From assembly GCA_023134135.1 (NCBI GenBank), contig JAGLVB010000003.1:98218-162217 (forward strand): a stretch of DNA of 64,000 nucleotides, written 5' to 3'. Source of the stretch: Candidatus Aenigmatarchaeota archaeon (lineage in GTDB: Archaea > Aenigmatarchaeota > Aenigmatarchaeia > QMZS01). Below, piece by piece: positions 3,548-63,470 of this stretch. Below the pieces are notes generated by a model. It saw nothing but the letters and a program-made list of their open reading frames with translations. It was not told the origin of the DNA and did not search any database. How positions within the stretch are numbered: the first letter of the stretch is position 1; every line of letters starts with the position of its first letter. The position numbers and the translations under genes are program-made.

Positions 3548-6271
3548 ATGTTTGATAAAGAAAAAGCCAAAGAACAAGTAAAAATTCTTGTTGATAAATA
3601 CAACCGAGTTGCTGAAGCAGGCAAATTAAAGAGATATAAAGAAGAAGACACTAAAGCAGAATTTATTGAACCCTTATTTGAAGCATTGGGTTGGGATGTC
3701 AGAAATATAACCCATGATGACGAAGTTACAAGAGAAGATAAAGTATCTCGTGGAAGAGTGGATTATGCGTTTAGAATAGATGGAATTCCTAAATTATTTC
3801 TGGAAGCCAAAGCTATTAAAGAAGATTTAGAGAAAATTAAATTTGCTGAACAGGCAATTAACTATGCGTGGCATAAAGGAGCGACATGGGCGGTCTTGAC
3901 TGATTTTGAAGGTGTAATGGTTTTTAATGCAGAATGGAAATCTGTTAATCCCTTGCGAGATAGGCTTTTTTACATTAAATATGATGAATTTTTAGATAAA
4001 TTTGATCAACTTCTCCTATTGTCAAGAGAAAGTTTAGAAAAAGGATTACTTGATAAAGAAGCTGAAAAATGGGGTAAAAAAGCTAAAAAAATTCCAGTGG
4101 ATAAACAACTTCTTAGTGATTTGACTAAATTTAGAGAATTGCTTACAAAAAACATTTTGAAAAATAATCCTTCACGAAATTTATCTGGTGATGAATTGGA
4201 TGAAGTAGTCCAAAGAATTTTGGACAGGTTAATATTTATCAGAACTCTTGAAGATAAACAACTGGAAGCACCTGTCTTACAGGCTTTAATTAGAGAAGAT
4301 AAACACAAACGAGTTTATAAAAAACTCAGTTTATTGTTTAGTGAAATAAATGAGATTTACAATAGCAAATTATTTGCACATCATCTTTGTCAGGAATTAG
4401 TTATAGATGATGAAGTTTTAGAGAAAATAATTCATGGTTTGTTTAAAACATGCGATAACACAGTTCATTATGATTTTGGAGTTATTGATGCTGATGTCCT
4501 TGGTAATATTTACGAACAATATTTAGGACATATTCTTAAGAAAACGGATAAAAGAGCAAAACTTGCGGATGGAAAAACACACCGAAAAGAACAAGGAATT
4601 TATTATACTCCAACTTATGTAGTAGACTATATTGTTAAAAATACTGTTGGGGAACTGGCGAAAAGTAAAAAATTTGATTTGAAGAATATTAAGATTTTAG
4701 ACCCTGCATGCGGTTCAGGTTCTTTTTTGATGAAAGCATTTGATTATCTTGTTGCGTTGGATAAAAAAAGAAACAAAAACACAGACCAGACAAAACTTGA
4801 TTTGTCTGGCACTTCTGCAACCTATGGGAGAAAAATTGAGATATTGAAAAACAATATATTTGGGGTTGACTTAGACTCAAAAGCAACAGAAATTGCCCAA
4901 CTTAATTTGTTATTGAAAGCCGCTGAAAAAAAACACAGGTTGCCAACATTGCAGGAAAATATTAAAGTTGGGAATAGTTTAATTGATGATTCTGAAATTG
5001 CAGGAAATAAGGCTTTTAAGTGGAATGAAGAATTTGGAGAAATTATGGATGATAATGGGTTTGATGTTGTGATTGGAAATCCTCCTTATGTTTTTACAAG
5101 GGATGTTGAGTTCCTTGATGCTTTTAAAGAATATATTAAAAGCAATTATTTTAAAGGATATGATACCAGTTCAAAAAGTCATGCAAAACAAGCGGGTAAA
5201 GTAAATTTATATGCAGTATTTCTAATAAAAAGTATTTTATTGTTGAAAGAAAGAGGTCTTTTTGGATTTATAATACCTAATAATTTACTCAGAACCACCA
5301 CATATGATATTATTAGAAAATTCATATTAGATAACTGTAAGATTATTCAAATAGTGGATTTAGGTAGTGGTGTTTTTGAGGGAGTTACCGCTTCAACGAT
5401 AATACTTATTTTACAAAAAGAAGGCAGTGAAACTAAGAGAAATAAAAACAAAGTTATAATATATCCGGATATCAATAATTTATCAAACAAAAAAGAAATT
5501 GAACAAAAAGATTTCTTAGAGAATACAAGTTATACATTTAACATCACACTTGGTAAAAATGAAAGGACAATATTTGGTACAATAGAAAAAAATTCAATTT
5601 CATTGGGAAAAGAGACAAAATATATTATAGAAGGTATTGTTGGAAGTCGAAAAAAAGATGTTGTCGATTCACCGATTGATGATAAATGTAAAAAATTCTT
5701 AGTAGGTAAAGATATAGGTAGATATAAACTTGATTATAAGGATAAATATATTATTTACGATAGGGACAGATTACATCGGGCAAGACCCGAAGAAGTATTT
5801 ACATCTAATAAAATAATTATTCAAAGAATAAGTGGAGGGTGCATGCCATTAAGATGCGTTTTAGATAAGAAGAAATATTATACTTTTGCATCAACCAATC
5901 TTTTACTTTTAGGAGAAAACTCTAAATTTGATTTAATTTATGTAATGGCATTATTAAATTCAAAATTAATTAATTGGTATTATGTGAATAAATTTACTAA
6001 TAAATCAACCTTGACTGTAAATATTTCTAAAACCTTTTTGGAACAAATTCCAATTAAAAATATTTCAAAATTAGAGCAGAAAATAATTATTGAATTGGCA
6101 AACAAGATGCTCTCTATTAATGAAGATTTGATTAAACTGAAGAACAAAACAACAGATGAAAAAGCCAGATTAGAAAAAGAAGCTGAAAAAGTAGATAAAG
6201 AAATAGATAGAGAAGTTTATAAGATTTATGGTCTGACCAAAGACGAGATTAAGATTATTGAGGAAAAATGA
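3548..6271 (+). CDS. Type IIG restriction-modification enzyme (N-terminal PD-(D/E)xK nuclease fused to gamma-class N6-adenine DNA methyltransferase and specificity region)
   Basis: N-terminus EEDTKAEFIEPLFEALGWDV...GRVDYAF...LEAKA resembles an HsdR-N/Mrr-like nuclease core. DPACGSGSFL is SAM motif I and VIGNPPYV is motif IV. Long C-terminal TRD-like region; 907 aa in one polypeptide. Confidence 0.8.
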   Translation: MFDKEKAKEQVKILVDKYNRVAEAGKLKRYKEEDTKAEFIEPLFEALGWDVRNITHDDEVTREDKVSRGRVDYAFRIDGIPKLFLEAKAIKEDLEKIKFAEQAINYAWHKGATWAVLTDFEGVMVFNAEWKSVNPLRDRLFYIKYDEFLDKFDQLLLLSRESLEKGLLDKEAEKWGKKAKKIPVDKQLLSDLTKFRELLTKNILKNNPSRNLSGDELDEVVQRILDRLIFIRTLEDKQLEAPVLQALIREDKHKRVYKKLSLLFSEINEIYNSKLFAHHLCQELVIDDEVLEKIIHGLFKTCDNTVHYDFGVIDADVLGNIYEQYLGHILKKTDKRAKLADGKTHRKEQGIYYTPTYVVDYIVKNTVGELAKSKKFDLKNIKILDPACGSGSFLMKAFDYLVALDKKRNKNTDQTKLDLSGTSATYGRKIEILKNNIFGVDLDSKATEIAQLNLLLKAAEKKHRLPTLQENIKVGNSLIDDSEIAGNKAFKWNEEFGEIMDDNGFDVVIGNPPYVFTRDVEFLDAFKEYIKSNYFKGYDTSSKSHAKQAGKVNLYAVFLIKSILLLKERGLFGFIIPNNLLRTTTYDIIRKFILDNCKIIQIVDLGSGVFEGVTASTIILILQKEGSETKRNKNKVIIYPDINNLSNKKEIEQKDFLENTSYTFNITLGKNERTIFGTIEKNSISLGKETKYIIEGIVGSRKKDVVDSPIDDKCKKFLVGKDIGRYKLDYKDKYIIYDRDRLHRARPEEVFTSNKIIIQRISGGCMPLRCVLDKKKYYTFASTNLLLLGENSKFDLIYVMALLNSKLINWYYVNKFTNKSTLTVNISKTFLEQIPIKNISKLEQKIIIELANKMLSINEDLIKLKNKTTDEKARLEKEAEKVDKEIDREVYKIYGLTKDEIKIIEEK

Positions 6272-55078: not shown

Positions 55079-55161
55079 ATTTAACATATGCAGATATGCG
55101 AAGTTTGCGAAGCAAATTTGGATGGAGCCTGTAAGGCGGAGTCTCTTAATCGCTGTTATGT
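55079..55161. repeat. attC-like element 1 (ATTTAAC ... GTTATGT); left half of sub-family 2, right half of sub-family 1
   Basis: ATTTAAC-ATATGCAGATATGCGAAG-[TTTGC GAA GCAAA]-TTTGGATGGAG-[CCT GTA AGG]-CGGAGTCTCTTAATCGCT-GTTATGT. Confidence 0.6.
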
Positions 55162-55252
55162 CTGGGTGAGCGAAGCGAAAGTCTGCAAGACGTCCCCAAG
55201 AATTTTCGTAGAAAATTCGCAGTGTTTCTTCGGGTGCCGTTAATCACTAATA

Positions 55253-55260
55253 TTTATATA
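55253..55260 (+). promoter_or_regulatory. TATA-box-like TTTATATA, ending 22 nt upstream of the ATG at 55283
   Basis: The sequence and spacing fit an archaeal promoter with a short or absent leader. AT-rich background lowers specificity. Confidence 0.3.
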
Positions 55261-55282
55261 ATACAAAATAGTTAACTAAATT

Positions 55283-55927
55283 ATGAGTAATGATAAGGAA
55301 ATGTTTGAAAAAATATATGAAAAAGTAGCAGTCTGGACAGAATCCGAGCCACCTAAAGAATTGGTAAATTTAATTGAAAGTGGAAAAATTAAACCATGCA
55401 AAGTTCTTGATGTTGGATGTGGTGAAGGATTCTATGCTATTTATTTGGCTTCAAAAGGTTTTGATGTAACAGGAATAGATATATCAGAAAATGCTATAAA
55501 ACTTGCAAAAGGAAATGCGGTGAAACAAAGTGTAAAAATAAAATTTATGCCTTTTGATGTAGATGATTTAGATAAAATAAATGATAAATTTGATTTTGTA
55601 TTTGAATGGGCAATTTTGCATCATATAATGTCCGAACAAAGACAAAAATATGTAAAGAATATTAAAAGGATTTTGAATGTAGAAGGAAAATATTTATCAA
55701 TCTGTTTTAATAATCAAAATCCTGATTTCGGAGCGAAGGGCAAGAATTTAAGAATAATTCCAGAAGGTGCAAAAATGCCTGTAGGAACAAGATTATATTA
55801 TTCATCTTTTGAAGAGATGAAACAGTTATTTGAACCGCATTTTCGTGTAATTGAAGCCAAATTGATTACCATGACTGCGGGTAAAAAAGAACATATTGGT
55901 AACTATTTCTTTATGGAAAAGATGTAA
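55283..55927 (+). CDS. Class I SAM-dependent methyltransferase (small-molecule type)
   Basis: VLDVGCGEGFYAIYLASKGFDVTGIDIS (motif I and post-I); 214 aa. Confidence 0.75.
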   Translation: MSNDKEMFEKIYEKVAVWTESEPPKELVNLIESGKIKPCKVLDVGCGEGFYAIYLASKGFDVTGIDISENAIKLAKGNAVKQSVKIKFMPFDVDDLDKINDKFDFVFEWAILHHIMSEQRQKYVKNIKRILNVEGKYLSICFNNQNPDFGAKGKNLRIIPEGAKMPVGTRLYYSSFEEMKQLFEPHFRVIEAKLITMTAGKKEHIGNYFFMEKM

Positions 55928-55946
55928 AGGCACCAGAGGAAATTAA

Positions 55947-56036
55947 ACATAACATCGGGATTTAGAGAAGTCGGGCGTAGCCCGATTTGGATGGAGAAAT
56001 CTGCAAGACTTCGGAATCTCTTAATCGCTGTTATAT
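55947..56036. repeat. attC-like element 2 (ACATAAC ... GTTATAT)
   Basis: ACATAAC-ATCGGGATTTAGAGAAG-[TCGGGC GTA GCCCGA]-TTTGGATGGAG-[AAATCT GCA AGACTT]-CGGAATCTCTTAATCGCT-GTTATAT. The outer arms GATTTAGAGA/TCTCTTAATC pair at 9 of 10 positions. Confidence 0.65.
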
Positions 56037-56161
56037 TTTCCCGTCAGGGATTGATTTTTAGTGCAACGACGCTGAAAGCAAAAAATCAAAGTCGTATTTA
56101 AGTTTCCCAATAGAAGCGAGGTTTTTCCGAGTGTAACCTCAAAAGCTCTCTCATTGCCAAT

Positions 56162-57025
56162 CTAATCTGCATCAACGGGTACAGTAGATTTATCTTTTCT
56201 TAATAATAATCCCGCAACAAGAATTAAAGTTCCTCCAATAATCATGTTTAATGTGATTACTTCTTTGAAGAAGACAACACTAAAGATTAATGCTGCTGGA
56301 ACTTCCCAATATGTGAATAATGAATAATGGCTCATTTTTAATTTTTTCAACGCAAAAAAGAATAATAAGAATGCAATTATACCAACTAAAAATCCATATA
56401 ATGATGCAACACCTGTTTGAGTAATTGTTGGTATTGGTTTATTGATAAAAATGAATGGTAAAAAAACAATTGCACCTACAAGATTTTGATAAAATATTGT
56501 TTCTGTCTTGGTGTATTTTTTTAATCCTTTTTTGAAGATAACTACTGTAATTGAAAAAATTATTGCGGAAAGTAGCATGGCTGCCATTCCAATAAAGTCT
56601 TTATTTCCAAAACTAATTTCTTTATTCATATACATGACAGTAATTCCTAAAAAAGCCATACCAATAAGTAATGCAGTTCTTTTTGATACTTTTTCTTTCA
56701 AAAAAATTGCACCGAAGATTGAAGCAAAAATTGGCCATGTAAATAGAATTATTACTGCATTACCAATTGAGGTGTATAGATATGCAACGAAATAAAGAAA
56801 CATCATGGCAGCATTTAATCCAGAAGCAATTAACATGATTTTGTAATTTCCCTGAAATAATTTTATCTTCTTCCATTCAAAATAACCTAATAAAATTATT
56901 ACAGGAATGAACACTCTAAAGAATGTGATTGAAGTTGATGGGAGATTGAGGAGTTTAATAAAAACGCCACTTGATCCACTAATTGTTGCGGCAAAGATTA
57001 TTGCGAGATAAGGATTCAGCTTCAT
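56162..57025 (-). CDS. EamA/DMT-superfamily transporter
   Basis: 287 aa, about 10 TM helices, with the two-EamA-repeat architecture. Confidence 0.7.
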   Translation of the reverse strand: MKLNPYLAIIFAATISGSSGVFIKLLNLPSTSITFFRVFIPVIILLGYFEWKKIKLFQGNYKIMLIASGLNAAMMFLYFVAYLYTSIGNAVIILFTWPIFASIFGAIFLKEKVSKRTALLIGMAFLGITVMYMNKEISFGNKDFIGMAAMLLSAIIFSITVVIFKKGLKKYTKTETIFYQNLVGAIVFLPFIFINKPIPTITQTGVASLYGFLVGIIAFLLFFFALKKLKMSHYSLFTYWEVPAALIFSVVFFKEVITLNMIIGGTLILVAGLLLRKDKSTVPVDAD

Positions 57026-57106
57026 AATGATTACAATTGCGGGATTATTATATATAGTTTTCTAGTAGCCAGTATAAAGAGAGAGCCGTTCAGAAACTTA
57101 AATACG

Positions 57107-57211
57107 ATTGCACATTGCTATTAAAAGAAGTTCGGTTTTGAGGCAACCCACAAAACCGAATTTGGATGGAGAAGTCTGCAAGACTTCGGAACTTCTTAAT
57201 CGCTGTTAGTT
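57107..57211. repeat. attC-like element 3 (left box degenerate: ATTGCAC ... GTTAGTT)
   Basis: ATTGCA-CATTGCTATTAAAAGAAG-[TTCGGTTTTG AGGCAACCCA CAAAACCGAA]-TTTGGATGGAG-[AAGTCT GCA AGACTT]-CGGAACTTCTTAATCGCT-GTTAGTT. Compared with AATTGCAACTAACAT of elements 4 and 5, the ACTAA of the left box is missing. Confidence 0.55.
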
Positions 57212-57344
57212 GCGTCGGAGTGAAACGAGGACCAAGGGTTAGTGCAACGGTCGGCGAAGCCGAAACCCGAAGAGTTATTTTCAAGGGCGTTCTATTAAAT
57301 GAGCGAATGCGATACATTAAGAACAAGAATTAAAAGGCGAATTT

Positions 57345-57908
57345 TTATTCCAATTTCATATAAGAATATTTTCCTAAAGTAAATTTATTATCAGTAATTA
57401 ATTGTTCAACTTGTTGTTTATGATTTTCATATGAATTTTGAATTATTAAATCAATACATACTAATGGATTTTCATTTTCAGATTCAACAGTTCTAACAAA
57501 AATATTTGAAGCATTAGTTGGTTCTCCTATTTGATAAGCTAAATCTTTGATTTGTTCTAATTGATATGGTGGTTTTATTCTAATTCCAATATAATTACCC
57601 TTCAAGTCACCCTTTTTAACTATTTCAAGTGCATCTTCGGACTCAATAGATACATCACATCCTCTTAATTTTTCTTCAAGGTCAACCTGCTTTCTAAAAA
57701 GATTAACAATATCTTTTGAAGAATATTTATCATCAACATTTCCATCAATAAAAACACCAGATTCTAAAATATTTTTATTATATCGAAATAATGATCTGAA
57801 AAATCCTAATTCAACATTATCTAAATGAAAATTCGTAAAACTACTATTTACCTCATCAAAAGTTTTCCCTTCAAAATAAACAAATCCTCTAATTTTTTGC
57901 ATAATCAT
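57345..57908 (-). CDS. Hypothetical protein
   Basis: 187-aa ORF. No family recognised. Confidence 0.4.
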   Translation of the reverse strand: MIMQKIRGFVYFEGKTFDEVNSSFTNFHLDNVELGFFRSLFRYNKNILESGVFIDGNVDDKYSSKDIVNLFRKQVDLEEKLRGCDVSIESEDALEIVKKGDLKGNYIGIRIKPPYQLEQIKDLAYQIGEPTNASNIFVRTVESENENPLVCIDLIIQNSYENHKQQVEQLITDNKFTLGKYSYMKLE

Positions 57909-57984
57909 ATATAATTAATAGATTAATATAAAACTTTCGAAAAAATTCGCCTTCTTTACTTTTTTAGTCCTTGAAAATAATTGC

Positions 57985-58083
57985 AACTAACATATGCAGA
58001 TATGCGAAGTTTTTGCGAGTATCAATTGTTCCAAAGCAAAAATTTGGACGGAGCGAAGCGGAGTCGTATATTTGCTGTTATGT
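57985..58083. repeat. attC-like element 4 (AACTAAC ... GTTATGT), sub-family 2
   Basis: AACTAAC-ATATGCAGATATGCGAAG-[TTTTTGC ...19 nt... GCAAAAA]-TTTGGACGGAG-[C GAA G]-CGGAGTCGTATATTTGCT-GTTATGT. The arms GCAGATATGCGA/TCGTATATTTGC pair with two G:T positions. Confidence 0.6.
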
Positions 58084-58140
58084 TCTCATCCAAAGGATGA
58101 CGAGGAGCGAAGCGACGAAGAGTAAAATTTCCATTTCCTG

Positions 58141-58190
58141 ATATATTCTGCGAAGCAGACAATATGTCCGCAGGACGGGGGGAGTTCTTT
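58141..58190. repeat. 50-bp module copy A (ATATATTCTGCGAAGCAGAC..TGTCCGCAGGACGGGGGGAGTTCTTT)
   Basis: Differs at 3 positions from 63333-63382. Contains the CTGC-GAA-GCAG and GTCC-GCA-GGAC mini-hairpins. Confidence 0.85.
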
Positions 58191-58207
58191 TTATGAGATT
58201 AATAAGA

Positions 58208-58432
58208 TCAAAATATTACTTCTTTAAGAATATCTGCATGAAATCCACCGTTGGATAGAAAATAAGGCGGGTCTGCAAAAATCATATTAACTGAATTTGC
58301 AGGTAGTGAATTAAGAACCTTTAGACAGTCGTCATGGAATAACTGTATGTTTTCTGAGTTGAAGTATGGTTTAACCATATATCTATTTGTTTGGAATTGG
58401 TTAATAAAAAGTTTGTTGTTTAATCTCGGCAA
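58208..58432 (-). pseudogene. Truncated beta-class N6A/N4C DNA methyltransferase (N-terminal ~70 aa only)
   Basis: ...IQLFHDDCLKVLNSLPANSVNMIFADPPYFLSNGGF, then 10 unrelated codons and a stop. The TRD and SAM-binding motifs expected downstream are absent. The truncation abuts the repeat module at 58141-58197. Confidence 0.7.
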
Positions 58433-58437
58433 AACAA

Positions 58438-59508
58438 TTATTTACCAATTATTATAACTTCTCGATATCCTTTTCCATTATTTCTATTAAGTTTATATGA
58501 ATATGGTATGGATTTTGTTATCACTGTTTTTTTGTATTTTTTCATTAATTTGACAATTGTTTGTATAGTTGGCTTTCCTTTATTTCCGTAAGATACAACT
58601 ATTGTGGAATCGGAGAATTTACGAAAAAGATTATCAAAATTACTTATTAAATTACAATCCCATGTATTTTTTTTGAAAATGAATGGTTTATTTACTCTTG
58701 AATTATCAATATTATGTTCCCATGTATTGTAATTCATAATACCTTCTAAAAAATGATACATCTCTGCATAGTTTTGAGGATGACAAGAATCTTTCCTACA
58801 ATAAGGCGGATCAAAATATACTAGATCAAATTTATCATTGATATTGAATATGTCTGTATTAAGTACCATATTGTTTTTTCCATTGTCAAAAACAAACTTT
58901 GAATATTCTTTATTGAATTTAATAAAATGATCCTTGAATGGTTTATCCCATGTTTTTTTATTGCCAAAACTTCTCTTAACATTGCTCGTTCTAAGATTCA
59001 AATTTTTTCTATGAAATAGATTAAATGGTCTTTTTGAAAGACAAGATTGAAACAAATTGTGATATGCTAACGCTTTTTTGTATCTTAGTGTTTTACCGTT
59101 ATATAACAAAGACAAATCTTCAATATTTTTTATCATTTTATCTAATAAGATATTTTCTTCATCAAGAAAATAAATACCATTATACATTTTACTTATTAGT
59201 TTTGGATATGATTCTGTTTTTCTTTCATTAAAAATAAATTCGATGTCTTTCACATTAAGTTTTACATTTTTATTCTCAATTAAAGCTATTCCCGTCTGAC
59301 TATTTGATTTAAGTATATCATTAAATGAGACTTCTTTACCCATACTTTTAAAAAGAAAACCAATACTACCTGAACCCCCAAAAGCATCTAAAACAGTTTC
59401 AAATTCAAGAGTTACAAGGATATTTTTTAACCAAGACACCATTCTTCTTTTGCTTCCTTGATATCTTGTTGAAGGAGCATCAAATCTTTCATTATCTTTT
59501 TTCTTCAT
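58438..59508 (-). CDS. D12-class N6-adenine DNA methyltransferase
   Basis: STRYQGSKRR, LDAFGGSGS (SAM loop) and VYFDPPYC (motif IV); 356 aa. Confidence 0.8.
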   Translation of the reverse strand: MKKKDNERFDAPSTRYQGSKRRMVSWLKNILVTLEFETVLDAFGGSGSIGFLFKSMGKEVSFNDILKSNSQTGIALIENKNVKLNVKDIEFIFNERKTESYPKLISKMYNGIYFLDEENILLDKMIKNIEDLSLLYNGKTLRYKKALAYHNLFQSCLSKRPFNLFHRKNLNLRTSNVKRSFGNKKTWDKPFKDHFIKFNKEYSKFVFDNGKNNMVLNTDIFNINDKFDLVYFDPPYCRKDSCHPQNYAEMYHFLEGIMNYNTWEHNIDNSRVNKPFIFKKNTWDCNLISNFDNLFRKFSDSTIVVSYGNKGKPTIQTIVKLMKKYKKTVITKSIPYSYKLNRNNGKGYREVIIIGK

Positions 59509-59509
59509 A

Positions 59510-60292
59510 TTAAATTACACTTTGTATTTTTTGAATATAATCTAGGTCAACAATTGCTTTATTTAAGATAGAATCTTGCTCCGAAGATGTCATCTTTTTG
59601 AAAATATCAGGAAAAGCTAAAATTAATGATATCATAATATAACACTGCAAATCATTACAGTTTTTTATCCATTCCTGAAATTTCGCTTCATCATACTTTG
59701 GAGAATAACGACCTGTCGAAGTTTGGAAATGATCCGCACTAGTATGAATGGATTTTGAAAGTTGAGCATATAATCTTTTTAATAGATCTCCTGTTTTCCT
59801 TCCTGAGTAAATTTTTTTATTGGCATTACATTGCTGATCAAATGTGTCTATTTTACTAAGTTGTTTAAAATAAGTGAAGTCAGAACCCCAAACATATTTT
59901 TGTTTTACATTGATATACCATTCATTGTCGTTAAGCCACCAGTCATATTCTATTTTGTGGTCGATAAAGTAGATCATTCTTAGAGCGGATTCCATTTGAG
60001 ATCGTAAACACATATTGGCATATTTATAGAGTCCCAATAACGCAAAATGCAATCCATTTATTCCATCAGCGAAAATTTCAGGCATTATTTTTTCAGCAAT
60101 TTTATCTCCATGAAATTTGTTTTTCCATTTTCCATATAAATTCAGTATTTCTAATACTTTCTCTATGTTATTGTCTTGATCTATTATAGACTTTTCCCAA
60201 TTTTGTTTTCTCCATATCTTTTGTGCATTATGCACAGTTTTTATCAATGTAGGTAAATTGTTGATTTGAAATCTAACCATTATTATCACCAT
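59510..60292 (-). CDS. Unknown helical protein with HEPN-like Rx6H motif
   Basis: LRSQMESALRMIYFIDH contains RMIYFIDH, which fits the Rx4-6H spacing. Also LSKSIHTS. No family recognised. Its start (60292 or 60280) overlaps the upstream gene. Confidence 0.4.
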   Translation of the reverse strand: MVIIMVRFQINNLPTLIKTVHNAQKIWRKQNWEKSIIDQDNNIEKVLEILNLYGKWKNKFHGDKIAEKIMPEIFADGINGLHFALLGLYKYANMCLRSQMESALRMIYFIDHKIEYDWWLNDNEWYINVKQKYVWGSDFTYFKQLSKIDTFDQQCNANKKIYSGRKTGDLLKRLYAQLSKSIHTSADHFQTSTGRYSPKYDEAKFQEWIKNCNDLQCYIMISLILAFPDIFKKMTSSEQDSILNKAIVDLDYIQKIQSVI

Positions 60293-61016
60293 TTATAAAG
60301 AAAGAAACAGAACAAAGTGAGTTATTGCTATCAATTGTTAAAATATGGTCTTCAATCTCCGCATTTACATTATACTTTTGAGCAAGTTGCTGAAAAAATT
60401 CTTTTAAAGTTAAGATTTTATCTGCAATAGAATTAATATTATTACTCTTGGATAAATTTAAACCATGCCATGATGATACCAGGAATTGATCTGAGTTATT
60501 CTTTATTGTTGTTGTATTGACAGCCGTTTGTTCTAAGAGTGTTGTATACATGACTATAAAACTACTGTTTCCGAATCTTTTTTGCTCACTAAAAATTTTT
60601 TCAATACTTTTAAGTTCTTTTTCTATTCGTCCATTTAATATTTCAATTTCTTGTGAAGAAAAATCAATGTTTAAAATGTGAAACGGGAGACGATCAAAGA
60701 TTTTATGTTGACCACAATTTAAGATAGTCTCTTCAAATTCAATTTCATCAATTACTTCGTTTACTTTTCCTTCAGCATCTAAACTTAAAGCCTCAATTGA
60801 ATTTTTACACCAAGCAAGTATATGGATTTTTGAAGAAATACATTCTTCATTAAGAATTCTTATTTCATCCATGTTTCTAGAGTTGGTTAAAGTTAAAACC
60901 TTTAAGTTCTTGTTTTTTATTTTTCTCGGATTTATTACATGACCTATATCTTTGAATTTATTTTTCCAGAAATTATTGGCAATGTCGGTTTTTAACCGTA
61001 ATATAGTTTCTTCCAT
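60273..61016 (-). CDS. Unknown protein (faint Rossmann/MTase-like motif order without a Gly-rich loop)
   Basis: LKVLTLTNSRNMDEIRIL ... LPFHILNIDFSSQ loosely recalls the motif I/IV positions of Trm1/TcmP-like folds. This is very tentative. Confidence 0.3.
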   Translation of the reverse strand: MEETILRLKTDIANNFWKNKFKDIGHVINPRKIKNKNLKVLTLTNSRNMDEIRILNEECISSKIHILAWCKNSIEALSLDAEGKVNEVIDEIEFEETILNCGQHKIFDRLPFHILNIDFSSQEIEILNGRIEKELKSIEKIFSEQKRFGNSSFIVMYTTLLEQTAVNTTTIKNNSDQFLVSSWHGLNLSKSNNINSIADKILTLKEFFQQLAQKYNVNAEIEDHILTIDSNNSLCSVSFFINGDNNG

Positions 61017-61025
61017 GATATTTAC

Positions 61026-62711
61026 CTAGAACATCTTTTCGAATAATCTGTATATTTTTTGCATTGCAGAAATAGATATTTTTTCTTCTTTTGCAATGAA
61101 TTGAAAACCAATCACAAATTCCATAATAATCGTATTGTCCAAGGCAATATTGAAAATTGGATGGTTTTTATTGAATACAACTGTTTTTTTCTGTATATCT
61201 AATTTACAGATAGGATCAATTTTCGTTGTTATATTCCATTGATCATATTTAACAGAAAATTCTTTGTTATTGACTCTGATTTTTTCAAAAAGTGATGGAT
61301 GTTCCTCATGAATAATTACTTTTTTTTGTTCTTTGTCTATTTCTATGGGATTCTCATCTATATTTCTTATTGACCTTTTTTTCTCAATAGTGAATCCTTT
61401 TTTGCTTGCTATATCGCTAATTTTCTTTGAGAGGGTTACTATTTCTTTCTTATCTTTCCTTACTATCGGTGCTTTCGGGATTCTTAAATTAGTTTTATCA
61501 AATTTAATGATTCCTACTGATTTTAAATCTTGAATGATTTTTTCTTGATTTGGTAGTTTTTCTAACGTTTCATATATTGCTTTATCTTCTTTTGCAGTGT
61601 TTTGAAACTCATGATCCCATTTTGTTAATTTGTCTCTAAAGAACTCATATATTTTTGATACTTCTTCAGTATAATAGAAACCATCCCTATCAAGCATTAA
61701 ATCATTATTTAATCCTTCAACAATATGAATTTCTCCCGTAAAATAATTTAATTTACCTAACATACGACCTTTCAATTTGATAACATCAAAATCTGTAGGT
61801 AAACCTATTCCTACATCGTTTAATCTAATTTGAAATCCTCTTGCTTCCTGTGGTCTGATAGAAGTAAAAGGAGACAAAATTGTGTATTTCAATATAATGT
61901 TTCCAAACTTTTGTTCTCCTTTTTCTATTATTTCTGATCTTTTATTATTGGCTCCTTCAGGCACATTCCTAAATAATTCTTCTCCGTCAAACCACACTCT
62001 TAAAGGAATCCTATTTTTTAGATAGAAAAAATCTTTTAATTCTTTATAAGATTCAGGGAATTGTAACGGTAAATATTGTGATAGCTCCCATTTCGTCTTT
62101 TCAAGCCAACCAAATCGTTCAATTGAACCACAACCCTCTTTTTCATATTCTTTCATTTGTGTAATTGTGCGATCTTCTATATTTTCAAGAAGTACAATTG
62201 TTTCTCCTTGTTTTTTTGGCAATAAGCTCGGACATATTTTATAATCTATATTTTCAATATTGTTATTTAACACCCAAGAATTATCTTGATAATATTCACT
62301 TACTTTAATAATTACTTCAATAGCATTTTCTTCTCCTGCTTTTTTACTTACAATTCGAATTGTTTTACAATAGGGAAATACCGCCAAGAAACCAACTCCA
62401 AACTGCCCTATTCTTTTTCTACCCAAACCAATTGAAGCACCTGTCCGGGGGGTGGTTTTACCAATTGTTAAAAGTTTATTTTCAATATCTATTTTATCCA
62501 TCCCTTTTCCATTATCTTTAATAATGAGTTTCTTCGATTTGAAATCTAAATTTATCTTTATCTCTGTAGCTTCAGCATCATAAGCGTTAGAAACAAGTTC
62601 TTTTATTGCTCGCGAAAAATTCTTATAAAGACCAATACTTAAATGACTCACTACTTTTGAATCCACTTTTATAGAAAGTTTGCCTTTTTCAATGATTTTT
62701 TGATTAATCAT
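61026..62711 (-). CDS. GHKL-superfamily (MORC/MutL-like, HATPase_c_3) ATPase
   Basis: N box ELVSNAYDAEATEIKI, G1 box IKDNGKGM and G2 box GQFGVGF. A long C-terminal region may hold an S5-like transducer. The likely start is ATG 62711 (the track uses GTG 62720). Confidence 0.8.
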   Translation of the reverse strand: MINQKIIEKGKLSIKVDSKVVSHLSIGLYKNFSRAIKELVSNAYDAEATEIKINLDFKSKKLIIKDNGKGMDKIDIENKLLTIGKTTPRTGASIGLGRKRIGQFGVGFLAVFPYCKTIRIVSKKAGEENAIEVIIKVSEYYQDNSWVLNNNIENIDYKICPSLLPKKQGETIVLLENIEDRTITQMKEYEKEGCGSIERFGWLEKTKWELSQYLPLQFPESYKELKDFFYLKNRIPLRVWFDGEELFRNVPEGANNKRSEIIEKGEQKFGNIILKYTILSPFTSIRPQEARGFQIRLNDVGIGLPTDFDVIKLKGRMLGKLNYFTGEIHIVEGLNNDLMLDRDGFYYTEEVSKIYEFFRDKLTKWDHEFQNTAKEDKAIYETLEKLPNQEKIIQDLKSVGIIKFDKTNLRIPKAPIVRKDKKEIVTLSKKISDIASKKGFTIEKKRSIRNIDENPIEIDKEQKKVIIHEEHPSLFEKIRVNNKEFSVKYDQWNITTKIDPICKLDIQKKTVVFNKNHPIFNIALDNTIIMEFVIGFQFIAKEEKISISAMQKIYRLFEKMF

Positions 62712-62847
62712 TTTGCTCACCCTTTAATTGTTCTTCCATCATAATTTCAAATTGTCTTGATATAAGCCACCCTTTTCTTTTACAATAACTTCTATAGTCA
62801 TTATACAACTTGGTTTTAACTCTTAAAGTTATATTTTTTGATTCCAT
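62704..62847 (-). CDS. Ribbon-helix-helix (CopG/Arc-like) DNA-binding protein, 47 aa
   Basis: Hand-translated: MESKNITLRVKTKLYNDYRSYCKRKGWLISRQFEIMMEEQLKGEQND*. It has a beta-strand (ITLRV) followed by two helices. Its stop overlaps the ATPase start (ATGATTAA). Below the track cutoff. Confidence 0.6.
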   Translation of the reverse strand: MESKNITLRVKTKLYNDYRSYCKRKGWLISRQFEIMMEEQLKGEQND

Positions 62848-62866
62848 AATTATCACCATAATTCAA

Positions 62867-62887
62867 ATATACACAAATGTATATAAA
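62867..62887 (-). promoter_or_regulatory. TATA-like box (TTTATATA, 62880-62887 on minus) overlapped by the perfect palindrome ATATACA-caaa-TGTATAT (62867-62884)
   Basis: Read directly. The box ends 32 nt upstream of the RHH ATG (62847). The palindrome is a candidate RHH operator. Confidence 0.4.
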
Positions 62888-62976
62888 TATTGCTATTTTA
62901 GAGTTTTTATCTATAGACATATCCTTTTCAAAGAAAAAGACGATTTGTCCGTAGGAACTCCCTTAATAATATAGAA

Positions 62977-63019
62977 AAATTTGGGAGAGCGAAAGCGAAC
63001 CTCTTAACCTTGGTTATAT
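62977..63019. repeat. attC-like half-site (right half only, ends GTTATAT)
   Basis: AAATTTGGGAGAG-[C GAAA G]-CGAACCTCTTAACCTTG-GTTATAT parallels the right halves of elements 1-5. No matching left arm was seen. Confidence 0.45.
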
Positions 63020-63149
63020 AAAGTGCGAAGCATTTCCTTGTTGTTTCGGGTGGTCGGTTAAGAGAAGTTTTTCTATCGAGCGAAGCGAGACAATCTGTGC
63101 GTAGCACTGGAATTCCCCCTTTTTTTTAGGAAAACTTAAACACAATTGC

Positions 63150-63244
63150 AACTAACATCGGGCATTAAGAGAAGTTTTTTGCGTAGCAAAAAATTTGGGT
63201 GGAGAAGTCTGCAAGACTTCGTAACCTCTTAATGTTTGTTATGT
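63150..63244. repeat. attC-like element 5 (AACTAAC ... GTTATGT)
   Basis: AACTAAC-ATCGGGCATTAAGAGAAG-[TTTTTTGC GTA GCAAAAAA]-TTTGGGTGGAG-[AAGTCT GCA AGACTT]-CGTAACCTCTTAATGTTT-GTTATGT. The outer arms CATTAAGAG/CTCTTAATG pair perfectly. Confidence 0.65.
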
Positions 63245-63332
63245 CTGTCGGAGCGAAGCGGAGACCAAGGGATAGCCGCAGGCGGTTTTTGCGAAGCAAA
63301 AAATCCCGCAGAGTTAAGTTTAAGTTTTCCGT

Positions 63333-63382
63333 ATATATTCTGCGAAGCAGACTATCTGTCCGTAGGACGGGGGGAGTTCTTT
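63333..63382. repeat. 50-bp module copy B
   Basis: ATATATTCTGCGAAGCAGACTATCTGTCCGTAGGACGGGGGGAGTTCTTT. See copy A. Confidence 0.85.
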
Positions 63383-63470
63383 ACACCAAAGCCGAAGGCT
63401 CATATTACTTAAATTATGGGAGTTCTTGGTTAAAAATAGGACAATTTATAAATATTTAAGTAGTTTTAAT

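Follow-up and report, generated by a model that had tools for sequence, protein, structure and literature searches.

The DNA analysed here is a window of 64,000 nucleotides (nt) from a Candidatus Aenigmatarchaeota archaeon. Towards its right end it carries five copies (c1–c5) of a repeated element of about 85–105 nt, all on the + strand and spanning positions 55079–63244, with genes and chains of small hairpins between them (Table 1). The exact core motif TTTGGRYGGAG occurs five times in the window, on the + strand only and always inside this region. A full-sensitivity covariance-model search of 52–64 kb likewise returned exactly five copies, with scores of 58–92 bits. In our judgement the elements are probably attC-like recombination sites which act as folded single-stranded DNA (ssDNA), and which belong to an integron-like cassette platform run by XerA and not by an integron integrase.

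From 5' to 3', the element consists of a box ATTGnnnnTAA↓C (the arrow marks the boundary of arm and central region), the R stem TAACA (whose partner TGTTA lies at the opposite end), a bulge of 2 nt, the L stem (consensus GCGATTAAGAG, partner CTCTTAATCGC), AAG, hairpin 1, the core TTTGGRYGGAG, hairpin 2, CGRAA and the right arm. When it folds, the outer R stem is followed by the bulge and the L stem, which leads into a three-way junction bearing hairpins 1 and 2, both of them variable. A first-pass annotation made from the letters alone had described hairpin-1 stems which differ in every copy and always pair. All of them were located: TTTGC/GCAAA in c1 (55104–55116), TCGGGC/GCCCGA in c2, TTCGGTTTTG/CAAAACCGAA in c3, TTTTTGC/GCAAAAA in c4 and TTTTTTGC/GCAAAAAA in c5. 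The variants of hairpin 2 were found as well, namely CCT-GTA-AGG in c1, AAGTCT-GCA-AGACTT in c3 and c5 (in c2 with one mismatch) and C-GAA-G in c4. The outer arms had also been said to co-vary, which holds in part: co-varying arms are present, but those of c1 do not pair and c3 lacks the TAAC box.

The copies with the highest model scores are c2 and c5. In c2, the dif-like left arm ATTAAACATAA (55942–55952) is followed by ↓CATCGGG, an L stem interrupted by a single T·T mismatch, hairpin 1 (TCGGGC-GTA-GCCCGA, 55971–55985), the core TTTGGATGGAG, hairpin 2 and TGTTA at 56029–56033. The left arm of c5, ATTGCAACTAA↓C, leads over a spacer to the L stem CATTAAGAG/CTCTTAATG, hairpin 1 (TTTTTTGC-GTA-GCAAAAAA, 63175–63193), the core TTTGGGTGGAG, hairpin 2 (AAGTCT-GCA-AGACTT) and TGTTA at 63235–63239. 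Copy c4 has an L stem GCAGATATGCGA/TCGTATATTTGC with two G·T wobbles on the + strand, where its folding energy is -10.4 kcal/mol versus -7.0 on the - strand; its hairpin 1 has a long loop and its hairpin 2 is shrunk to three loop bases closed by one pair. Hairpin 1 of c3 is the commonest module of the element family, found identically in 25 copies from other genomes. The left box of c3 reads ATTGCACAT-TGCT, so that the TAAC box, the putative cleavage box, is gone, and the copy is probably inactive. The arms of c1 are a hybrid, with a left arm of the c4 type (TAACATATGCAGATATGCGAAG) and a right arm of the c2 type (CTCTTAATCGCTGTTA), and folding gives no outer stem on either strand. Copy c1 is a distal, decayed site.

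Since five copies cannot establish covariation, the set was enlarged beyond the window. Relatives were sought by a pattern scan (core plus right arm) with one genome per species, which gave 103 loci (hereafter L-numbers), compared with about 8 expected by chance. The hosts are mostly Woese-, Pace-, Nano-, Aenigm- and Nanohaloarchaeota, anaerobic methanotrophic archaea (ANME)/Methanosarcinales and Thermoplasmatales; a few loci are labelled as Candidate Phyla Radiation (CPR) bacteria or other bacterial metagenome-assembled genomes (MAGs), some perhaps by binning errors. The element family is conserved in sequence and structure alike. Hairpins 1 and 2 behave as swappable modules, and nearly all of the 57 variants of hairpin 1 are perfect hairpins.

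Covariation was tested on a MAFFT alignment of 86 distinct copies against 500 shuffles and against controls with slid partners. With the initial structure, 92.0% of the cells were paired, versus a shuffle mean of 81.8%, which no shuffle raised to the observed value (0/500), and 31–45% with slid partners. The refined structure reached 93.2%, versus 83.4% when shuffled and 33–48% when slid, with two-sided changes at 21 pairs and in 270 cells, and 0/500 shuffles reached any of the measures. The R stem TAACA/TGTTA was paired in 96.7% of the cells and the L stem in 92.4%, with two-sided changes at 8 pairs. RNAalifold, run with no structure supplied, recovered both stems (R and L) and both hairpins of this structure, with AAG-TTT pairing added to hairpin 1. 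The RY dinucleotide of the core covaries with the RY just 5' of the right arm (AT 62/GC 15; TA 53/CG 24). This persists within a single class of hairpin 2, which indicates that the junction is closed by a helix of 2 bp. Alignment columns 29 (the G of AAG) and 106 (the initial T of TTTGG) form an invariant G·T in 86/86 copies, which would read as a C·A mismatch on the opposite strand. This hints that the + strand folds, or else that both bases are recognised rather than paired.

The nature of the folded molecule was addressed through helix mismatches and loops. RNA families typically tolerate G·U in their helices. In the helices of the element, G·T is no commoner than A·C (48 versus 52), so this RNA-typical tolerance is absent, and the two counts give no strand signal either. 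The loops are overwhelmingly the triloops GAA, GCA and GTA, closed by C:G (203) or T:A (166), and GNRA or UNCG tetraloops are rare. Mini-hairpins of the type d(C-GNA-G) are unusually stable as DNA. For stems of 4 or more, the ratio GNA:TNC was 379:19 in the elements plus 250 nt downstream, 229:3 in the elements alone and 267:66 in the flanks alone, versus 83:88 in the control region, positions 1–54000 of the window. Such strong strand specificity marks the + strand of the window as the strand selected to fold. Rfam 15 gave no match at gathering score in the 64 kb, and at E up to 1 across the array it gave only a chance miRNA match inside a gene. All public runs that contain the stretch are DNA metagenomes, taken at cold seeps and in comparable sediments. 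The neighbouring gene, counted as the longest reading frame of a gap, is opposite to the element strand in 67 cases and shares it in 43, i.e. the elements are untied to transcription units.

These data bear directly on the first-pass annotation, which had proposed a folded ssDNA such as a recombination substrate and had named a structured RNA as the alternative. The prevalence of GNA triloops is borne out and proves to be strand-specific. The covariation, which might have vanished in a larger set, was strengthened by 80 more copies, and the suggested covariance model was built and scanned on public genomes, where it found 212 copies in 98 sources. Together with the lack of a G·T excess and of Rfam matches, the independence from transcription units, and the co-oriented arrays described below, whose end is marked by a dif-like site and the gene of a tyrosine recombinase, this supports the ssDNA reading over a structured RNA, though the elements may have an additional role as RNA. 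A protein-binding palindrome in double-stranded DNA or a symmetric cruciform was rejected: the stems vary in sequence and length and yet pair, and the loops are strongly strand-asymmetric.

The survey with this covariance model (R1) gave the array architecture. At least two copies are present at 50 loci, and none of the 114 adjacent pairs is inverted (0/114). The median gap is 812 bp (interquartile range 614–1335), about two thirds of which is occupied by the longest open reading frame (ORF). The window array has five copies within 8.2 kb and none in the first 55 kb; elsewhere up to 6 copies per 8 kb were found. The cargo is highly diverse, with 112 Pfam families in 105 gap ORFs, none of them occurring more than 4 times; it includes methyltransferases, GNAT acetyltransferases, isochorismatases, major facilitator superfamily (MFS) transporters, a C5 DNA methylase and regulators. 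The 25 commonest of these 112 families in the 105 array ORFs include no transposase family, and no copy of the element was found among 2.9 million viral contigs.

A tyrosine recombinase of 257–325 amino acids (aa) is encoded at 9 of the 103 loci. In 9/9 its gene follows the last element, when the array is read in the direction of the elements, and uses their strand. In a six-frame motif scan, a recombinase was detected on that side in 8/40 arrays whose flank there measures 2.5 kb or more and on the opposite side in 0/39 with a comparable flank, and in no case inside an array. The reverse test started from 80 metagenomic loci encoding relatives of the array-linked recombinases. Among the 11 closest relatives (41–76% identity), 7 had elements upstream on the strand of the gene and none downstream, and 0/69 of the more distant Xer-like loci had elements. 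On the XerA model NF040815, the best model, the array-linked recombinases scored 178–246 bits, four of them above the cutoff. On the IntI model TIGR02249, 9/9 gave 160–211 bits (cutoff 265) in a two-piece match which skips about positions 176–235 of the profile, i.e. the IntI-specific domain. The closest solved structure is XerA of Pyrococcus abyssi (4A8E, 238 bits in one stretch), and Vibrio IntI4 (2A3V) was matched in two stretches. Judged by its sequence, the array-linked recombinase is of the XerA type and is devoid of the IntI-specific extra domain, the feature which defines integrons.

Other fold-back sites with a ATTGnnnnTAAC start adjoin the recombinase genes in L019 and L089. The former carries, at about 1200–1400 (oriented), a long GC-rich palindrome TAAC-GCGCGCGGAT…ATCCGCGCGC-GTTA, and the latter, at about 4490–4560, a minimal hairpin TAACAC-TCTTTATGC…GCATAAA-TGG-GTGTTA. 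Given such varied sites beside recombinase genes, the platform seems to accept several site families.

The dif site of P. abyssi is ATTGGATATAA-TCGGCC-TTATATCTAAA (PMC2958812). The 11 nt ending in TAA at the 5' side of each element, the left arm, have the consensus ATTGCATATAA, which is identical to the P. abyssi dif arm ATTGGATATAA at 10/11 positions. A match of at least 9/11 to this arm was found in 44.5% of the copies versus 1.6% of the background 11-mers ending in TAA. Positions 1–3 of the left arm (ATT) are 85–89% conserved though they lie outside the paired stem, which indicates recognition by a protein and not pairing. From these sequence features, the element would carry a dif-like Xer site that is reconstituted by folding. 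The same box occurs 50–220 nt upstream of the recombinase start codon, with no full element behind it, at 8/9 loci. At several loci the recombinase-side boxes form imperfect inverted repeats of the 11-6-11 type, such as ATTTCACTTAA-CTACTA-TTAAGCGAGAT in L032 (9/11 between the arms) and ATTGAATATAA-CGCCTA-TTACACCCAAT in L097 (8/11).

One cassette was found to be shared cleanly between arrays. A complete gap of about 650 bp with a reverse-strand gene is 88% identical between the arrays L033 and L034, which come from different MAGs and have unrelated neighbours. The homology stops at …ATTGAATATAA↓CAT, the boundary of arm and central region. Xer enzymes cut at this boundary. At the other end, the homology begins exactly at AGTGCAACG inside a second module (ATTGAATTTT-AGTGCAACG-hairpin-AAAATTCAA-AGT), which has a dif-like arm of its own and is a hybrid in both arrays, with unpaired halves. 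Considering its own arm and the hybrid halves, this module may be a second, smaller site. Other shared blocks tell nothing about site boundaries: L058 and L082 share one methylase gene in two operons, L080 and L094 show a gene replacement inside an operon, and only a gene and the family-conserved parts are common to L035 and L087. Excision joints in metagenomes were rejected as evidence for the crossover point, as they were mostly repeat copies of other organisms with short sides.

The following mechanism is proposed. Upon folding of the + strand, the 11-nt dif-type arm (ATTGCATATAA) and the bases behind it would pair with the far end (…TGTTA). The fold would rebuild a dif-like duplex, in which the R stem provides one binding arm, the L stem the second arm and the stretch with the bulge a central region, while the tip would be held by the three-way junction with its two GNA-capped hairpins. 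XerA would bind this dif mimic and, at ATTGnnnnTAA↓C, carry out the exchange of a single strand with a dif-like site, itself double-stranded, beside xerA, the equivalent of attI, and replication would then resolve the product of the single-strand exchange. Recombination of attC with attI in integrons and the integration of CTX phage by XerCD proceed by such steps. The cleavage point and the single-strand mechanism are suggested here by one breakpoint and by analogy with these two systems. The XerA involved may be a dedicated enzyme or the chromosome-dimer resolvase of the cell. Cassettes would stack co-oriented with the newest beside the recombinase, an end which in the present array would lie to the right, past the end of the contig. 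The hairpin modules behind an element would travel with it, with the AGTGCAACG module as a second, smaller site. Viewed from the recombinase, the arrangement matches an integron, with a divergent recombinase gene, an insertion site and cassettes each ending in a fold-back site; in this frame the - strand of the window is the top strand and the folding + strand the bottom strand.

Several observations weigh against this reading. A recombinase is visible in just 16 of the arrays examined, and neither a recombinase nor a dif-like head is seen on the contig of the window. Only one cassette is cleanly shared, its upstream homology begins in module 2 and not at an element, and neither flanking element moved with it. 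The linkage test of the crossover side gives only weak agreement, with the element bodies tied to the right flank (0/2000 shuffles) more closely than to the left arm (64/2000). In the folding strand, the 2-nt bulge (TC) belongs to the 5' arm, which also holds the proposed cleavage site next to it. In canonical attC, extrahelical bases on the arm opposite to the cleaved R box set the choice of strand. The mixed orientation of the genes (67:43) is unlike that of classical promoter-driven integrons. The strong conservation of core and modules across phyla is not needed by the model, and the elements could be selfish. Finally, some host labels such as Gammaproteobacteria and Bacteroidales may be binning errors.

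Selfish miniature mobile elements (similar to miniature inverted-repeat transposable elements, repetitive extragenic palindromic (REP) sequences or mini-cassettes without ORF) that spread by themselves into intergenic DNA, perhaps by means of the host Xer, and have between them mostly ordinary neighbour genes in place of captured cassettes are rather unlikely, even if part of the data suits this reading. A unit of about 315 nt made of element and modules is 91–98% identical across MAGs of Woesearchaeota, Nanoarchaeota and others, metagenome depth is highest on the elements, and frequent exchange among copies is apparent from hybrid modules and from hybrid copies like c1. Against this reading stand the clustering of the copies (none in the first 55 kb of the window), their uniform orientation in every array, the diverse accessory genes which they enclose and at least one gene block common to arrays with different neighbours. 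Hairpin elements of the REP/RAYT or IS200/IS605 type are dispersed and go with an HUH (Y1) transposase; the present copies are clustered, and the 25 most frequent Pfam families of the gap ORFs include no transposase family. Regarding depth, the peaks on elements and modules were seen in four cold-seep metagenomes, and the cargo genes were covered in the source sample only, which the favoured reading takes as a sign of mobility.

Selection on the fold of an RNA, be it a structured non-coding RNA gene or part of one, or a signal read in the transcript, for instance a terminator or a stabiliser, would account for a covarying multi-helix fold with a conserved unpaired junction sequence, and a transcript of the + strand would show the same loop bias. 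This explanation has to contend with the silence of Rfam even at E up to 1, with G·T not being favoured over A·C, with GNA triloops in place of GNRA or UNCG loops and with the lack of a fixed orientation to neighbouring genes, and it leaves the fixed recombinase end, the dif-like arm and the arrays unexplained; we regard it as very improbable. No more credence is given to a classical integron array, either a cluster of attC sites lacking an integrase (CALIN) or the distal part of a complete integron, with ordinary attCs and an IntI encoded elsewhere. The attC-like TAAC/GTTA R boxes, spacer, L boxes and variable tip, the co-oriented arrays with cassette-size spacing and the 160–211 bits of the adjacent recombinases on the IntI model are in its favour, and integrons and CALINs have been reported in MAGs of Aenigmatarchaeota, Nanoarchaeota and Halobacteriota (PMC9668308). 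It conflicts with the recombinases themselves, all nine of which are without the IntI-specific domain, stay below the cutoff of 265 and score higher as XerA. Moreover, the tested archaeal attCs of PMC9668308 are canonical and none has the TTTGGRYGGAG core, the conserved ATTG...TAA arm is dif-like and does not follow the RYYYAAC consensus, and the position of the bulge and the mixed gene orientation differ.

The XerA-run platform favoured here can be placed among known systems. With integrons it has in common sites which are imperfect palindromes folding as single strands, in which …AAC/GTT… form the outer boxes, an inner box is paired as well and the tip varies. Also shared are co-oriented arrays of mostly single-gene cassettes with diverse accessory and defence genes, clustered in the manner of attC sites (less than 4 kb apart), the location of an insertion site and of the gene for a tyrosine recombinase at one array end, and one strand favoured for folding. 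It is unlike them in its XerA-type recombinase without the IntI-specific extra domain, in an outer arm that is an 11-nt dif type, in a tip that, instead of varying freely, forms a conserved three-way junction around the invariant core TTTGG..GGAG, and in a bulge which adjoins the proposed cleavage site on the same arm. Further differences are the approximately 40% of cassette genes opposing the array direction, where those of integrons are mostly co-oriented and lack promoters, and the chains of conserved hairpin modules trailing each site. Canonical attCs and six IntIs have been described in Archaea (Ghaly et al., 2022; PMC9668308). Neither the core motifs of this family nor the contig prefixes of its loci are present in the tables or among the tested attCs of that study (PMC9668308).

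A second relationship is that with CTX phage and integrative mobile elements exploiting Xer (IMEX), which integrate at the chromosomal dif by means of XerCD, the Xer recombinase of the host. As in these, a folded single strand is proposed to rebuild a dif-like duplex with an imperfect central region and to undergo a one-strand-pair Xer exchange with a double-stranded dif, with tandem build-up beside the site. Unlike these, the units are gene cassettes of 0.4–5 kb without phage or replication genes, many of them per array, and a single archaeal-type XerA is encoded next to the array. The pdif modules of Acinetobacter plasmids likewise carry accessory genes between Xer-type recognition sites and are exchanged among replicons (PMC6449649, PMC13141974), but pdif are 28-bp double-stranded XerC/XerD sites in alternating orientation and the present sites are fold-backs of about 100 nt in one orientation. 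Archaeal Xer/dif (P. abyssi XerA; PMC2958812, PDB 4A8E) shares the recombinase family, the arm type and the 11-6-11 layout; the dif of Thermococcales is a single site away from xerA serving chromosome-dimer resolution, unlike the dozens of hairpin-embedded dif-like half-sites described here. The platform as proposed works like integrons and like the CTX type of Xer exploitation, and it lies outside the integron family as defined by IntI.

Table 1. Copies of the element, hairpin modules and cassette genes of the array (window coordinates, except for the two copies on contig L184)
Feature	Position	Strand	Characteristics
Copy c1	55079..55161	+	Model 61.9 bits; both internal hairpins intact
Modules after c1	55162..55250	+	GAGCGAAGCG, GTCT-GCA-AGAC, GAATTTTC-GTA-GAAAATTC; similar modules trail elements in other genomes
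SAM (S-adenosylmethionine)-dependent methyltransferase, 214 aa	55283..55927	+	Cassette gene; Pfam Methyltransf_25 1.5e-21, TehB 3.7e-17
Copy c2	55942..56036	+	Model 92.4 bits; three-way junction on both strands, z -2.6 and -4.0
Module 2 after c2	56037..56100	+	CCC-GTCA-GGG, then ATTGATTTTT-AGTGCAACG-(hairpin)-AAAAAATCAA-AGT
EamA-family transporter, 287 aa	56162..57025	-	Cassette gene; Pfam EamA 2.2e-34
Copy c3	57107..57211	+	Model 75.8 bits; R stem with mismatches
Modules after c3	57212..57330	+	GTCGGAG-TGAAA-CGAGGAC, then GGGTT-AGTGCAACG-TCGGC-GAA-GCCGA-AACCC-GAAGAGTTA, plus one more module
187-aa protein	57345..57908	-	Cassette gene; no Pfam match
Copy c4	57980..58083	+	Model 57.7 bits; second arm type, left arm ATTGCAACTAA↓C
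Modules after c4	58084..58200	+	Include TCTGC-GAA-GCAGA, GTCC-GCA-GGAC, then GGGGGGAGTTCTTT
Multi-gene cassette, five or six genes	58208..62859	-	Largest cassette; MethyltransfD12 1.1e-12, HATPase_c_3 3.1e-23
Composite module 5' of c5	62930..63145	+	Several GNA hairpins plus an element-like piece
Copy c5	63146..63244	+	Model 91.7 bits; fold z -4.7 and -4.6
Modules after c5	63245..63400	+	GTCGGAG-CGAAG-CGGAGAC, then module-2 variant GGGAT-AGCCGCAGG...ATCCC
Extra copy	L184 837-917		64 bits; perfect-pairing relative of the c4 arm type
Extra copy	L184 112-199		41 bits

The hairpin modules trailing the copies are themselves conserved. The AGTGCAACG module is found 3' of elements at dozens of loci, and module 2 may be a second, smaller site type with its own arm ATTGATTTTTA. 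A near-identical counterpart of the modules after c3 trails an element in L065, a Nanoarchaeota MAG. A 57-nt stretch in the modules after c4 is 91% identical to 63326–63382, within the modules after c5, which contain the hairpins TTTTTGC-GAA-GCAAAAA, TCTGC-GAA-GCAGA, GTCC-GTA-GGAC and AGCC-GAA-GGCT. In the composite 5' of c5, the element-like piece at about 62978–63016 reads TTTGGGAGAG-CGAAAG-CGAACCTCTTAACCTTGGTTAT and gave no covariance-model match at E up to 1. About 190 nt of this composite recur almost unchanged before the next copy on the contig (L184, about 930–1110). The mini element-like piece of both composites reads TTTGGGAGAG-CGAAAG-CGAACCTCTTAACC..GGTTAT and is unscored by the covariance model.

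The unit of about 315 nt, i.e. an element with the modules TATTCGTCTGAC…AGTGCAACG…, is 91–98% identical across MAGs labelled as Woesearchaeota, Nanoarchaeota and Deferribacterales. It was located at L023 2324–2636, L058 3398–3712, L070 852–1147, L071 1602–1837, L080 1864–2177, L083 346–659 and L094 3965–4291, and the surrounding genes are far less conserved. This suggests a very recent spread or a strong constraint on the whole unit. Near-identical elements are also present on long contigs of ANME-2, Methanoperedenaceae/GoM-Arc1 and other Methanosarcinales (Methanosarcinales-type loci L012, L016, L022, L024, L027, L047, L055, L062, L063 and L068). Methanosarcinales of such kinds live beside DPANN cells in seep sediments. 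L035, a 157-kb contig labelled Gammaproteobacteria, carries a lone element with modules and one reverse-strand gene, which shows 74% DNA identity to a cassette gene in the L087 array; the element could be a solitary insertion outside arrays or a binning artefact.

As for the cargo of the window, the genes of the largest cassette code for a D12-class Dam-type adenine methylase (356 aa), a GHKL/HATPase_c_3 ATPase (564 aa), two proteins of 247 and 260 aa without assigned function and small ORF(s). They probably form a defence-type operon, a candidate defence system carried as a single cassette. Elsewhere in the window, genes for geranylgeranyl reductase and NFACT fit an archaeal host. The contig carrying the window array is L184 (DAOVKR010000001.1, GCA_030631635.1, 167 kb; window coordinate = 68761 minus L184 coordinate). 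It ends 4.76 kb past the window and holds two further copies there, so the array has at least 7 copies and reaches the contig end on the side where the model puts the recombinase. No tyrosine-recombinase motif was found in the 64-kb window, gene calls in the 4.76 kb between its end and that of the contig include no recombinase, and upstream of the window array no integrase is present. The cassette past the window end (L184 1–5300, equivalent to window 63461–68760) contains a 257-aa ORF with a PD-(D/E)xK-like motif (FPFPDIEV...ELKY, by eye), a 482-aa protein of the tRNA-guanine transglycosylase (TGT) family (PF01702) and two N6/N4 DNA methyltransferases. The company of a TGT paralogue, methylases and a nuclease hints at a system for DNA modification or restriction, which may be of the 7-deazaguanine (DpdA-like) type.

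On balance, we lean towards the view that this integron analogue, built on XerA and fold-back dif mimics, is an undescribed cassette-capture platform, with near-identical sites common to DPANN, ANME/Methanosarcinales, Thermoplasmatales and some CPR. A literature search for Xer-based cassette platforms in archaea, DPANN or CPR found none. The sites are short and well defined, and the system could be tested in vitro with one protein.

Integrons are the textbook case of cassette capture through a folded single strand, and their special integrase is thought to be definitional. If the proposed reading is true, cassette capture evolved or persists outside the IntI lineage, and integrons would be tied mechanistically to Xer-exploiting phages. 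Such platforms would be undercounted by the current integron finders, which depend on IntI or on canonical attC. The platform would provide a concrete mechanism for the patchy and variable accessory genes of DPANN and CPR and for their gene sharing with ANME/methanogen neighbours in sediments, that is, for gene exchange among tiny symbionts, their hosts and their neighbours across phyla and possibly across domains.

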